A DNA stretch of 64,000 nucleotides from contig CAWDDT010000004.1 of assembly GCA_963801165.1 (NCBI GenBank), forward strand, positions 480,001 to 544,000. Direction: 5' to 3'. The notes under the pieces are model-generated. The model did no database searches. It saw only the letters and a list, made by a program, of their open reading frames with translations, and had not been told where the DNA came from. Shown piece by piece: positions 2,231 to 55,351 of the stretch; the first letter of the stretch is position 1; the number at the start of each line of letters is the position of its first letter. Origin of the DNA: an uncultured bacterium. Lineage in GTDB: Bacteria; Actinomycetota; Acidimicrobiia; Spongiisociales; UBA5794. Both the position numbers and the translations under genes were made by a program.

Positions 2231-2794
2231 ATGGCGTACATACGGCAGATCGAGCCCGCCGATGCGACTGGAGAGTTGAGGGCGTTTTACGATGCTCTCT
2301 TCGATACCGTCGGCAGCATCCCCAATATTGTGAAGCTTTCCAGCCTCAAGCCGTCCGCGGCATCCGCCGCGCAGGATCTCTATCAGAGTGTCCTCTACCA
2401 CGACTCGGGGCTGGCGATGGAGGAGAAGGAGATGGTGGCGACCGCCGTGTCCGTCATCAATGGCTGCGTCTACTGCTACGAGCATCATGGTGGGGCGCTC
2501 GCCAGACTCACGGATGATCCCGATCTCGCCGCGCAGGTGATTTCGGATTTTCGGTCGGCGCGGATCGGCCCGCGGGCGATGTCTTTGCTCGAGTTCGCCG
2601 ACAAGCTCAGCCGCACGCCGGGTGCGATGACCGAGGCTGACATCGACGCGCTGCGTCCCCTCGGCTTGTCCGACGAGGATATTCTGGACCTGGTCCAGTT
2701 GGTTTCCTACTTCGCCTACACCAGTCGCCTTGCGGTCGCGCTGGGGGTTGACCCGGAGATTCCGAAGGAGCCACCTGGTCCGGATCCCACGTGA
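2231..2794 (+). CDS. AhpD/carboxymuconolactone decarboxylase family peroxidase-related enzyme
   Basis: EKEMVATAVSVINGCVYCYEHHG motif. Confidence 0.85.
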   Translation: MAYIRQIEPADATGELRAFYDALFDTVGSIPNIVKLSSLKPSAASAAQDLYQSVLYHDSGLAMEEKEMVATAVSVINGCVYCYEHHGGALARLTDDPDLAAQVISDFRSARIGPRAMSLLEFADKLSRTPGAMTEADIDALRPLGLSDEDILDLVQLVSYFAYTSRLAVALGVDPEIPKEPPGPDPT

Positions 2795-2819
2795 TGCGGT
2801 CATGACGCGAATCGGCTAT

Positions 2820-2835
2820 TGTCAGACATCTGACA
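2820..2835. promoter_or_regulatory. Palindromic operator, copy 1 (TGTCAGACATCTGACA)
   Basis: Near-perfect inverted repeat just upstream of the GntR gene; core recurs at 3769 and 11664. Confidence 0.7.
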
Positions 2836-2841
2836 TGAATT

Positions 2842-3693
2842 GTGGTCTCCAGCTGCTGGCTACTGTCTGTCGGTTCCGGAGCGGTGGTTCACGCCAGCCC
2901 TAGTACGTGCGAGGTCGCCGATGGCAGAAGTACACGGACAGAAGGGACTCCGGGCGGACCGCGTCCTCTGTACCTGCAGCTGGTGGATGCGCTGCTTGAC
3001 TGGATCGTAGAAGAAGGGAAGGGGCCGGGGGACCGAGTACCGGGGGAGCCGGAGCTCGCGCGCCGATTCAAGGTCGGTCGATCGACGGTGCGTGAGGCCC
3101 TGGTGTATCTGGAATACGAAGGAATCGTAAATCGCTCCCAGGGCTTCCATACCACCCTGACTTCGCTGGCGCGGCGCCCGGCGTTGGGTTTGGAGGTGTT
3201 GGAACCAGTTGAGGCTCTCGCGACGCGGCAGGGATGGGAGTGCAAGACACGAGACCTGGTCTTGATGCAGAGTACTGCTGATGAAGTCCGGGCCGACAAG
3301 CTTCATGTCGAGCCCGGTTCCGATGTGTCGATCATCCGAAGAACGAAGTTCACCCAGGATGGCCCGTTTGCCTTGATGGAGAGCGTTGTCCCCAATGCAG
3401 TCAAGTCGTACGACATGCTGCGGAGCGAGTTCCAGGATTCCATAACGGTACTACTCGACGATGTCGCCACCCTTCGGTTTGCGGCGGCCGAGATCACCGC
3501 GGCGACCGCCGAGGGTCACGTCGCAGAGGCACTGGCCCTAGAGGTCGGGTCCCCGGTGCTGCTGCTCGAGGAGCTGTTCTATGGGGATGGTGAGGACCCT
3601 CTTGCCTGGAATCTCAACTACTTCGTACCGGGAACGATCCGGTTCGAGTTGCTGCGCAAGGTTCCGAGCGTAAAGTTGTCGGACCGCCGCTGA
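2842..3693 (+). CDS. GntR family (HutC/UTRA) transcriptional regulator
   Basis: PLYLQL...PGDRVPGEPELARRFKVGRSTVREAL wHTH plus C-terminal UTRA-like domain; start uncertain. Confidence 0.85.
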   Translation: MVSSCWLLSVGSGAVVHASPSTCEVADGRSTRTEGTPGGPRPLYLQLVDALLDWIVEEGKGPGDRVPGEPELARRFKVGRSTVREALVYLEYEGIVNRSQGFHTTLTSLARRPALGLEVLEPVEALATRQGWECKTRDLVLMQSTADEVRADKLHVEPGSDVSIIRRTKFTQDGPFALMESVVPNAVKSYDMLRSEFQDSITVLLDDVATLRFAAAEITAATAEGHVAEALALEVGSPVLLLEELFYGDGEDPLAWNLNYFVPGTIRFELLRKVPSVKLSDRR

Positions 3694-52280: not shown

Positions 52281-52419
52281 AGGCCCGCTTTTTGGCGCCG
52301 ATTTCCGCCGCCATGTATTCCGGTCCCGGACGCCAGAGACTGTTGACCGTTCGCTGAGTTTGCGTTGCAAACCCAAAACCTCGGCGAAGCTGAGGCGGCT
52401 ACACTTGCGTCTCGCCTTC

Positions 52420-52496
52420 GGGGGTGTAGCTCAGCTCGGCAGAGCGCCACGTTCGCAACGTGGAAGTCAGGGGTTCAAATCCCCTCACCTCCACCA
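52420..52496 (+). tRNA. tRNA-Ala(CGC)
   Basis: Acceptor GGGGGTG/CACCTCC with G3:U70, anticodon arm CCACG-TTCGCAA-CGTGG, GGTTCAAAT T-loop, encoded CCA. Confidence 0.97.
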
Positions 52497-52529
52497 AGGG
52501 ACCGTCCTATTCGGCCGGTCCCTTTTCTT
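52496..52529 (+). terminator. Intrinsic terminator after the tRNA
   Basis: AAGGGACCG...CGGTCCCTT followed by TTCTT. Confidence 0.75.
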
Positions 52530-52587
52530 GGCTTCGCCGTCGCCGGGCTGCCACGATGAGCACGTCGTTTCGCAACTGGAGGAATGT

Positions 52588-52902
52588 ATGTGGCTGTTTG
52601 CGGTGGTGGCCGGTCTAGTCGCAGCTGTGGTGGACACGGCAGTCATGATCCCGCTCGAGTTTCCAACAGGCGCTGAGAAAAGAGAGGCAATGACGGCGGC
52701 CTTCGTCGAGCGCTTCGTCCTCGGCTTCGTGATCGGTCCCGTCGCGGCCGGTCTCGATGTCAACGGCGTTGCCATTGGCGCGGCCCTCGGTCTCGCCGCC
52801 AGTCTCGGGCCTGCCATCATCACCAAGACCTGGGCGCCGATTCTCGCCATGGGTCTGGTCACCGGCCTTGGTGTCGGGATCGCATACCAGCTGGTCTACT
52901 GA
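52588..52902 (+). CDS. Small multi-TM membrane protein
   Basis: RBS GGAGGA; 104 aa, about 4 TMs. Confidence 0.65.
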   Translation: MWLFAVVAGLVAAVVDTAVMIPLEFPTGAEKREAMTAAFVERFVLGFVIGPVAAGLDVNGVAIGAALGLAASLGPAIITKTWAPILAMGLVTGLGVGIAYQLVY

Positions 52903-52978
52903 AGAAGGACCGGCGTCCGGCGGTGCCCACATGTCACACCGCCCGGGTAGGTTGGATCGCAACGGATCCGGGGGTGTG

Positions 52979-53254
52979 ATGAGCCAGTCTGCCGATGAGC
53001 AGGTCGATAGAGCGAAGGAACAGTTGGAGCCGGTGCGTGACGATTGGCTACGCCGCGCCGGGGTGACCGGGATCGACATCGGGTTCCTCTGGCAGGGCTC
53101 GACCATGTCGGACCAGGTGGGGATCCGGGTCAAGGTGGAGAAGCTTCTGGAGCCGGGGGACATACCGGAAGGAGAGCTCTTCCCCAGGTATCTCGGGGAT
53201 GTTCGGGTCCAGGTCCGCGAGGAGTCGGCGATGGGTCCCCAGCCCGGCGGCTGA
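52979..53254 (+). CDS. Stand-alone homolog of the N-terminal (pro)domain of the downstream protease
   Basis: DWLRRAGVTGIDIGF..IRVKVEK..GDVRVQVRE aligns with DWLRRPGVTAVDVGF..VRVHVER..GDFPVDVLE. Confidence 0.75.
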   Translation: MSQSADEQVDRAKEQLEPVRDDWLRRAGVTGIDIGFLWQGSTMSDQVGIRVKVEKLLEPGDIPEGELFPRYLGDVRVQVREESAMGPQPGG

Positions 53255-53318
53255 TCCGAGCACCTGTATTTCCGGGAACCGACGACTGTCTACTACTGGT
53301 GACGAGGAGGGGAATCCC

Positions 53319-54574
53319 ATGCCAAGAAAGCCGGCAGACAAAAGAATCGAAGAAGCAACGGAGTTGCTGCGTCAGCGGCGAAGTGATTGGCTGCGACGCC
53401 CCGGGGTGACCGCCGTCGACGTCGGGTTCAAGATCTCGGAACGCGAGATCACAAGCACCCTCGCCGTGCGAGTTCACGTTGAGCGCAAGAAGCCGCTTGC
53501 CGAACTCGAGGACTACGAGATCTTCAACGTGTCCCAGGCCGACGCGACCGCCAAGAACAAGCCAAAGAAGGTCGGGGATTTCCCCGTGGATGTCCTGGAG
53601 GCGACCTACGTTCCTGCACAAAGGGTGATTGTTGACCCGGAGAACGTCGCCGCCGTCAACGAGGCCATCGACCGCACCGGGGTGGTTACGCCGCTAATCG
53701 GCGGGATCAGCTGTGGCAATGCCCGGGTGACCGCAGGCACTCTCGCCGCCATTGTCTTCAATCGCACTGATGGTTCCCCGCAAATCCTGAGCAACTGGCA
53801 CGTGCTGGCGGGGAGTTCCGACGCGGCCGCGGGCGAAGAGATCTGGCAGCCGGGACGGGTCGATGGCGGCAACTCATCGCACCTGGTTGCCCGGTTGGCG
53901 AAGTGGCGGCTCAACAAGGACATGGACGCCGCCGTCGCCAAGCTCACCGGTGACCGCGACTACGTGCGCGACATCATCGGTCTCCACCCCGTGTCCGGAA
54001 TGGAGGGGGCTCAGCTCGGGATGAATGTGGTGAAGTCGGGGAGAACCACAGGCAACACCGAAGGAATCGTCGACGGAGTCAGCTTGTCGACCTCGATCAA
54101 CTACGGCGGCTCGACCGGAACCGTGGCGTTTCGCGACATGATGCACATTGTGCCCCGTCCCCCGTGGCCCAGTGTCGACTACGAGGTGTCGGCGGGTGGC
54201 GACTCGGGATCGGTGTGGATCAACGAGGGCACCGGCAAGGCAATCGGTCTTCACTTCGCCGGTGAGACCGATGCGTCTCCTACCGCGGAGAATGCGATCG
54301 CCTGCCCGATCATCCCCGTGGCCGATGCGCTCGACTTCTCGTTCCTACCGGTTGTCGCCCCAACCCCGCCAACACAGCCACCGCCACCCCGCCTCCTCCT
54401 CCGGCACGTCCGCCCCGGGACACGCTGCGCGACATCATTTGCCGAATACTGCCGTTCCTGTGCGGGTCAGGTTCGCAAACGGCGGCATCCGGGCCGGTTA
54501 CCCAGGGCGGTCGCGATCTTGTCGACATGATCATCGACGCCATCTACGAGGACATCGCCGACAACCAGAAGTAG
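53319..54574 (+). CDS. Nal1-like trypsin/chymotrypsin serine protease (probable frameshift in Pro-rich linker ~54390)
   Basis: RBS GAGGAGG; LSNWHV (His), DMDAAV (Asp), GDSGS (Ser), KSGRTT, GLHFAG; as read the ORF ends at 54530, the shifted frame ends ..EDIADNQK* at 54574. Confidence 0.85.
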
Positions 54575-55351
54575 CTAGTCCTGGAAGAAGCCCTGCTTTT
54601 TCAGGTAGTCGAGCACGGTCCTGGTATAGCGGGCGTGGCCTTCCCGGGTGTACTTGAGCTCGGTGTAGATCTGGGCGAGGTTCTCCACCCCTTGTTCCTC
54701 GACGAGCCTGCGGAGACGGGGGATGTTCATGTAGCGATCCCAGCCGGTCTGGTCGCGATCCCGGTAGATCTCTCGGATCTCATCGTCGGAATGATCGTGG
54801 TATACGTCATGGTGCACGAGACCCGCAAGCGGGAGCCGATCTCTCTGCTGCGGGTCTTCATCGGGCCAACCGAGGACGAAACCGACCACAGGCACGACAC
54901 CCTCGGGAAGCTCGAGGATCTCTCCGACCTGGTCGGCGTTGGCAAGGGTCGAGCCCATGTAGCACACACCCAAACCGAGCGCTTCGGCAGCAATAGCCGC
55001 CGTCTGCGAAACCAGCACGGCATCGATTGCCGCCACCAGGAATGCGAAGAAGTCGTCGAAGTTGTCCGGTGCGTCGTTGAGACGCAACCACTTGCGCATA
55101 CGGCGGAAGTCGGCGCAGAAGGTGACCACGAGCGGTGCTTGCCGCACCATTTCCTGCTCCATGTGTGCCCGGTAGAGACGCTCGCGCAGGGCGTCGCCGG
55201 CGGTGACAACGATCGAGTAGGTCTGCATGTTTCCCGACGACGAAGCCCGGATCCCGGCGTTGAGGATCTCATCCACGAGATCCTGTGGAACCGGGTCGGG
55301 CCTGAACCGGCGAATCGAGCGATGGCGATGGATCACATCGAAGACGTTCAT
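54575..55351 (-). CDS. Nitroreductase (NfrA/NfsA-like)
   Basis: HRSIRRF, SSSGNMQTYS, GLGVCYMG, RLP. Confidence 0.9.
   Translation of the reverse strand: MNVFDVIHRHRSIRRFRPDPVPQDLVDEILNAGIRASSSGNMQTYSIVVTAGDALRERLYRAHMEQEMVRQAPLVVTFCADFRRMRKWLRLNDAPDNFDDFFAFLVAAIDAVLVSQTAAIAAEALGLGVCYMGSTLANADQVGEILELPEGVVPVVGFVLGWPDEDPQQRDRLPLAGLVHHDVYHDHSDDEIREIYRDRDQTGWDRYMNIPRLRRLVEEQGVENLAQIYTELKYTREGHARYTRTVLDYLKKQGFFQD

Follow-up and report, generated by a model that had tools for sequence, protein, structure and literature searches.

A 91-amino-acid (aa) protein and a serine protease resembling rice NARROW LEAF 1 (NAL1) are encoded side by side in a 64,000-nucleotide stretch (the window) of the genome of an uncultured Acidimicrobiia bacterium (assembly GCA_963801165.1, contig CAWDDT010000004.1, positions 480,001 to 544,000, forward strand), and the small protein is a free-standing paralogue of the N-terminal domain (N-domain) of its larger neighbor. 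As judged from sequence comparisons, the two genes appear to form a conserved module that has spread horizontally, and the recurrence of the pair in several phyla makes it probable that the small protein works together with the protease. By analogy with NAL1, the free copy may act in trans as a stoichiometric assembly or regulatory subunit of the protease, a reading to which we assign a probability of roughly 0.5. The tRNA-Ala gene, the 104-aa open reading frame (ORF), the 91-aa ORF and the large ORF of this setting all lie on the + strand. The parts of the module are:

52979-53254, + strand: small gene, 91 aa, free-standing paralogue of the protease N-domain, resembling the ATP-binding domain (ABD) of NAL1 and with a fold possibly like that of the alpha-lytic protease pro region
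53042-53086, + strand: first arm of a 45-nt direct repeat, in the small gene; the second arm is in the protease gene (53385-53429)
53087-53212, + strand: small-protein positions L37, L56 and Q78, matching NAL1 ATP/Mg ligands (K38, K57 and D91 in the protease), by alignment to NAL1 ligands R120, K139 and D166 as given in PMC12012508
53255-53318, + strand: intergenic spacer, 64 nt, with GAGGAGGGG ahead of the protease ATG
53319-54574, + strand: NAL1-like serine protease gene, 416 aa in intact relatives, with a frame change near 54388 in the window copy
53319-53621, + strand: protease N-domain, equivalent to NAL1 ABD residues ~105-172 (hidden Markov model (HMM) coordinates and NAL1 alignment); K38, K57 and D91 kept
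53622-54371, + strand: chymotrypsin-fold protease domain (HMMs; weak Pfam Nal1_C and Trypsin_2 matches), with H161 at 53799-53801, D203 at 53925-53927 and S296 at 54204-54206
54384-54391, + strand: frameshift site, a C-rich proline-coding run
54392-54574, + strand: protease C-terminal tail with a Pro-rich linker, a conserved Cys pair and a terminal helix, out of frame with the gene body in the window

The association of the two genes was assayed by a pattern scan of one genome per species, which gave 195 loci encoding a relative. Eighty of the 195 were kept for analysis, and their open frames were searched with three HMMs (small family, N-domain and protease domain). The 20 closest loci, those with a protease identity of at least 49%, were L018-L036 and L052. 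In 18 of the 20 a free co-directional N-domain-like ORF abuts the protease gene, upstream in 5 cases and downstream in 13:

Free copy upstream of the protease: L018, L019, L034, L035, L036
Free copy downstream of the protease: L021-L032, L052
Contig ends inside the protease gene: L020

Note that L018 probably duplicates the locus of genome G002, since the sequences are identical. The close paired loci belong to Acidimicrobiia, Rhodobacterales, Kiloniellales and Geodermatophilus. Among the remoter loci (Chloroflexota, Acidobacteriota and others) a weak downstream copy was found in 5 of 60 (L072, L074, L076, L081 and L087), two of which (L074 and L076) come from a single metagenome-assembled genome; at another remoter locus, L060, the protease's own N-domain lies in a different frame. 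Within a class sample of 401 genomes, three have a match to the small protein, each with a protease about 1.1 kb away or less, and none of the 401 yielded an orphan member of the window's small family. Each of the three gave exactly two matches, one to a frame of 92-99 aa and the other to the N-terminus of an adjoining frame of 444-487 aa; measured from stop to stop, the small frame of the window genome is 173 aa. Two other species of the genus (G002 and G005) carry the same gene pair. The first-pass annotation of the window had inferred a two-gene module rather than a fresh duplication scar and had set beforehand, as a check, how often stand-alone copies adjoin NAL1-like proteases. The adjacency at 18 of 20 close loci, together with the kept length and purifying selection described below, bears this out.

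The kinship of the small protein with the protease N-domain was seen both in a single BLASTP comparison of the 91-aa protein with residues 5-102 of the large protein (30/98 identities, E 2e-13) and in a profile-profile alignment (hhalign) of the small family with 134 proteases (probability 99.5%, E 2.1e-22, 82 columns). Both ORFs are present, and the two methods agree with the original observation that the 91-aa ORF resembles the start of the next gene. The similarity had also been said to reach the DNA level, and a 45-nt direct repeat, 84% identical between its two arms, was indeed found over the conserved DWLRR.GVT..D.GF codons; shared coding in a GC-rich genome is sufficient to explain it. 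When the whole 4.55-Mb genome was searched with each protein, only these two genes matched.

The small ORF is a real gene, since its length is kept and it is under purifying selection. A word-indexed search gave 13 small-protein clusters of 66-95% identity, 12 of which are 90-91 aa long with the same start position. The ratio of nonsynonymous to synonymous substitution rates (dN/dS), a check likewise named beforehand for the small ORF, was 0.08-0.28 (6 pairs), indicating purifying selection, and the corresponding values were 0.08-0.22 for the protease N-domain (6 pairs) and 0.07-0.13 for the protease domain (3 pairs); the ratios are rough because dS was saturated (at least 0.9). The AlphaFold2 model of the small protein, for which 50 sequences were aligned, shows a sheet of three strands and two helices at a predicted local distance difference test score (pLDDT) of 88.5, and a Foldseek search with this model placed NAL1 chains at the top (probability 1.0, template-modeling (TM) score by query 0.57-0.61). 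The small protein of the window itself matched no Pfam family, PF25608 included, at E up to 1. NCBIfam gave only a chance-level match (E 0.047). In the wider small-protein alignment 17 of 50 members match Pfam NAL1_N (PF25608), the sole family match there.

Upstream of the small gene, GGGGG lies 5 nt 5' of the ATG. RNA-library contigs from two studies bridge the gene junction (53148-53351 and 53177-53404) and also cover parts of both genes; because such contigs may contain DNA, they do not demonstrate transcription or an operon and are at most a weak hint of expression. A scan of 52300-54800 for promoters and terminators turned up no promoter-like site and a single terminator-like one, which lies on the opposite strand, with no excess over shuffled sequences.

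To place the free copies, a tree was built from 23 of them and 32 N-domains (95 columns), in which many forks were unresolved. Eighteen free copies, of both the upstream and the downstream types and from both Actinomycetota and Pseudomonadota, grouped into one clade (support 100/99), whose branch of 0.91 sets it off from all 32 N-domains. This single clade indicates that the window small gene stems from one old duplication that moved with the protease between phyla. Two Kiloniellales free copies were placed among the N-domains, and three Chloroflexota free copies formed their own clade (99/95) beside the N-domains of their own group. As these two sets sit elsewhere in the tree, free copies arose at least three times.

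The protease is an S1 serine protease of the NAL1 type whose N-domain keeps the ATP/Mg ligand residues. For the protease of the window, Pfam matches stayed below threshold (Nal1_C, PF25819, with 18.7 bits where the cut-off is 26.1; NAL1_N with 11.7 where it is 27; plus Trypsin_2), and many protease relatives at 52-62% identity carry a precomputed PF25819 match. A profile of 17 protease relatives searched against the PDB retrieved 9 distinct NAL1 sequences (E 5.3e-9 to 3.2e-8), which upholds the first-pass assignment of the protease as Nal1-like. Residues 22-156 of the query align to NAL1 105-235, a span that reaches from the ABD into the beginning of the protease domain, and a second weak stretch covers the Ser region. 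In this alignment NAL1 R120, K139, D166 and V167 fall on K38, K57, D91 and V92 of the bacterial protease; K57 and D91 are invariant and K38 is nearly invariant in 134 protease sequences. Because the ligand residues align and are conserved to this degree, the bacterial N-domain is the counterpart of the NAL1 ABD, with its nucleotide site retained by sequence. As residue 22 aligns with NAL1 105, only ~21 residues lie ahead of it and the NAL1 1-88 segment has no bacterial counterpart. The catalytic residues H161, D203 and S296 are invariant in the same 134 sequences, so the His/Asp/Ser triad reported at first pass is intact, and the reported lack of a signal peptide also holds: neither protein has a hydrophobic N-terminal segment (over the first 60 aa, Kyte-Doolittle averages of 15 residues peak at 0.4 in the protease and at 0.7 in the small protein). 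Both proteins are thus predicted to be cytoplasmic.

The family is large, with 888 matches to the window protease, many of them 52-62% identical, in Acidimicrobiia, Rhodobacterales and other groups. Many homologues are named "endonuclease G" in JGI records; the name misfits a His/Asp/Ser chymotrypsin-fold protein and looks like a mis-annotation. In the C-terminal tail (54392-54574; alignment columns 360-499) two cysteines stand in an I-C-x-R-x-P-x-L-C-like motif followed by a terminal helix, and C373 and C380 are invariant in 17 sequences. Many relatives add a C-x-C-G-G motif. The tail has no NAL1 equivalent in the aligned parts.

The end of the gene needs a qualification. The first-pass annotation ran it to 54574, which is correct only across a frameshift: the frame from the ATG at 53319 stops at 54530, and the tail conserved in relatives lies in another frame that ends at 54574. 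In a 99%-identical protein of 416 aa (P0016) the tail is in frame. A near-identical DNA contig (X2) has one base more than the window, an extra letter behind 54388 and no other difference, which restores the frame; a second DNA contig (X1) lacks 5 letters at 54384, and its frame is likewise restored. Since two DNA runs and the 99%-identical protein keep the frame, the protease gene is intact in the population, and the frameshift of the window is most likely a mistake of assembly, with a rare variant as the other option. At the G005 locus (L017, G005:C5, 1823-3082) the protease is in pieces (1823-2476 and 2307-3005, with the tail in a third frame) and the adjoining small gene is intact; the broken gene is either a pseudogene or the result of homopolymer errors in a 10-contig assembly.

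The solved structures of rice NAL1 (PDB 8PMM, 8PME, 8HAT and 7Y77) give a picture of what an N-domain of this type does. The plant protein consists of an N-terminal segment (residues 1-88), the ABD (89-172) and a serine protease domain (SPD; 184-458), and its trimer is held by inter-subunit ABD-SPD contacts; ATP is bound by R120, R122, K123, K139, D166 and V167, is not hydrolysed and stabilises ABD loops, and the active hexamer consists of two trimers linked by strand 48-53 (PMC12012508). The window protease differs in being bacterial, in having a different, Cys-containing C-terminal tail and in lacking the 1-88 segment. The window system also adds a separate gene for a second ABD-like domain, and no such partner of NAL1 is described in the sections of that report drawn on here (PMC12012508).

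On the subunit reading, the free copy would dock on the protease in trans, at or near the NAL1-type interface between ABD and protease domain, where, as a cap, decoy or additional clamp, it could decide whether the protease oligomer forms and is active. Its effect might be either activating or inhibiting. Repeated evolution of a second N-domain copy, free or fused, supports this reading.

Plant microProteins consist of one domain and regulate larger, multi-domain paralogues through an interaction domain that both share. The free copy likewise has only the interaction domain of a larger paralogue; the window case differs in being bacterial and in forming an operon-like unit with the presumed target.

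The ATP-ligand positions vary among free copies. In the N-domains of 25 proteases position 38 is K in 24, position 57 is K in all and position 91 is D in all. The four free copies of the window subclade have L/I, L/V and Q at these three positions, so that the window-lineage copy has lost the ATP-ligand residues. They are also lost in L036 and in the Chloroflexota free copies. The 13 downstream-type copies have R at position 38 in 10, K at position 57 in 7 and D at position 91 in 10, and the two Kiloniellales copies keep all three positions.

Several observations weigh against a role of the free copy as a protease subunit. Genes can be neighbors and be inherited together without their products touching. 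At one close locus, L033, the protease is present and no free copy was detected, and 55 of the 60 remoter loci likewise lack one, which means that the protease can generally do without it. The hexamer-building NAL1 segment (residues 1-88, with strand 48-53) is absent from the bacterial proteins. Loss of the nucleotide site is a trait of the window lineage and not a general one, because the downstream-type copies mostly keep the residues and the Kiloniellales copies keep all three. Finally, the monomer model of the protease is poor (pLDDT 62.8, from an alignment of 17 sequences), and for that reason no interface could be read from it.

The close rival to the subunit reading is that the free domain works as a pro-region in trans, as a folding catalyst like that of alpha-lytic protease and a tight temporary inhibitor until it is degraded, with its C-terminal tail perhaps in the active-site cleft. 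It rests on a weaker fold match than that to NAL1, and the alpha-lytic protease pro region (PDB 2PRO, 3PRO and 4PRO) has no sequence-family match with the window proteins. Alpha-lytic protease is moreover secreted with a pro region that is cleaved off, whereas both window proteins lack a signal peptide and are predicted to be cytoplasmic, and the window protease keeps its own fused N-domain. We regard the pro-region explanation as unlikely.

The small protein could instead serve the protease specifically as substrate or bait, or it could act with another partner and simply share its inheritance with the protease. Linkage and co-occurrence fit an enzyme-substrate pair equally well, and the 55 remoter protease loci with no adjacent copy are in line with it. 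Free NAL1_N-type proteins are also common: the ESM Atlas contains clusters of 51-150 free-standing proteins of 81-94 aa named "NAL1 N-terminal domain-containing" (TM 0.79-0.83). An exhaustive profile search of 1.84 billion representatives gave 171 proteins at E 0.001 or better, and 148 newly listed ones were classified with HMMs:

61 of 148: short, a single N-domain and nothing else (on visual inspection, truncated proteases are among them)
63 of 148: N-domain plus protease
14 of 148: long, one N-domain only
3 of 148: two N-domains plus protease (partly checked with Pfam)
3 of 148: two N-domains
3 of 148: three N-domains
1 of 148: unclassified

The forms with two fused copies plus protease favor a subunit over a substrate, as does the well-folded 91-aa domain with its conserved surface motifs; one gene with two N-domains followed by the protease sits in a genome of the window's genus. 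The lack of any orphan of the window's small family in the 401 class genomes also argues against a substrate, and we hold this explanation to be quite unlikely.

Other architectures of the family deserve mention. P0147, P0187 and P0223 (360-434 aa) have three NAL1_N-like domains and lack a protease domain. At L014 (G008:C489), in the same genus as the window, a 381-aa gene (2248-3393, - strand) encodes a hydrophobic segment and the apparent Asp/Ser half of a protease, and the next gene (544-2238, - strand, 564 aa) encodes two N-domains in tandem, the beginning of a protease domain, including its His, and a long unrelated tail. The two genes may represent a split or rearranged protease.

A more specific version of the subunit reading, by analogy with NAL1, in which the domain depends on bound ATP to keep the oligomer together, would make the free copy an ATP-blind mimic that competes with the ATP-dependent assembly domain and wins when ATP falls. 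The pair would then respond to the energy state of the cell as a switch, building up or taking apart a cytoplasmic protease cage, for instance in starvation or during phage takeover. We consider this version improbable.

The first-pass annotation had suggested a toxin-antitoxin-like or defensive role. On that view the protease would be the toxic component, and the small protein would serve as its antidote or as a sensor. The patchy spread of the module (3/15 genus genomes and 3/401 class genomes), its passage between phyla at 52-57% identity and its position in a variable region beside tRNA-Ala count in favor of such a role. However, the small protein, the protease and the neighboring hydrophobic ORF matched 0 PADLOC families (E up to 0.1), the surroundings of the pair hold no conserved mobile or defence gene, comparison of 22 loci gave no conserved third gene of any kind, and gene order is not fixed, the small gene being downstream in 13 of the 18 paired loci. 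The proposal therefore fared poorly, and an anti-phage or toxin-antitoxin module is very improbable. The last alternative, a decaying functionless duplicate of the protease 5' end, has the tandem position and the shared 45-nt DNA stretch in its favor but is refuted by the conservation data (length kept at 66-95% identity, dN/dS of 0.08-0.28 even if at saturated dS, one clade over two phyla on a long branch, and a confidently folded model) and is scarcely credible.

The genomic setting comprises two further features ahead of the module:

52420-52496, + strand: tRNA-Ala(cgc)
52588-52902, + strand: hydrophobic 104-aa ORF, the putative four-transmembrane gene

Nitroreductase and xylose isomerase genes follow the module and are present in 15/15 genus genomes. 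The module itself is found in 3/15 (G000, G002 and G005), always between tRNA-Ala and the nitroreductase gene. Across the genus the distance from tRNA-Ala(cgc) to the nitroreductase gene ranges from ~1.6 kb to more than 14 kb, the tRNA-ward stretch being variable and the downstream flank common. The tRNA-Ala stretch (52420-54575 in the window) thus looks like an integration hotspot, and because its setting is such a variable, tRNA-linked one, the module is accessory; the setting concerns how the module arrived and not how it works. A scan of 52300-54800 for an att-like repeat of the 3' end of tRNA-Ala bordering the module found none. On contig C90 of G007 there are several partial copies of the tRNA 3' end.

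The hydrophobic ORF has about four hydrophobic segments and no family match, Pfam giving only sub-threshold noise. It had been proposed as a partner or substrate of the pair, a proposal we have dropped: the gene is absent between the module flanks in G002 and G005, and a 70%-identical stretch occurs in G006 on a contig that is unrelated to the module, with no protease match there.

Part of this picture was already known, namely the NAL1-like protease family and the free-standing bacterial NAL1_N proteins (PF25608 alone), which are in databases under automatic names and have the same domain and size as the window small protein, itself below PF25608 detection (E up to 1). The literature searched yielded no work on NAL1 homologues of bacteria or on a partner consisting of a free-standing N-domain. 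What appears to be new, as it was not found in that literature, is the conserved pairing with the protease, with a single old origin of the window lineage and repeated independent origins elsewhere.

Bacterial NAL1-like proteases are numerous and no studies of them were found in the literature searched; the plant enzyme is agriculturally important and its ATP-stabilised cage is a recent finding. The compact module, two small soluble proteins, is a simple system for examining the in-trans role of an assembly domain, and its carriers include the culturable Tateyamaria and Geodermatophilus amargosae. Should there be no interaction between the two proteins, the result shrinks to the annotation of two uncharacterised families. 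If they do bind, the module would be a clear example, in bacteria, of a multi-domain protein regulated by its single-domain paralogue, and if the ATP-blind version were also true, then, given at least three origins of free copies plus the fusions, it would be a general and undescribed means of regulating bacterial NAL1-like proteases.

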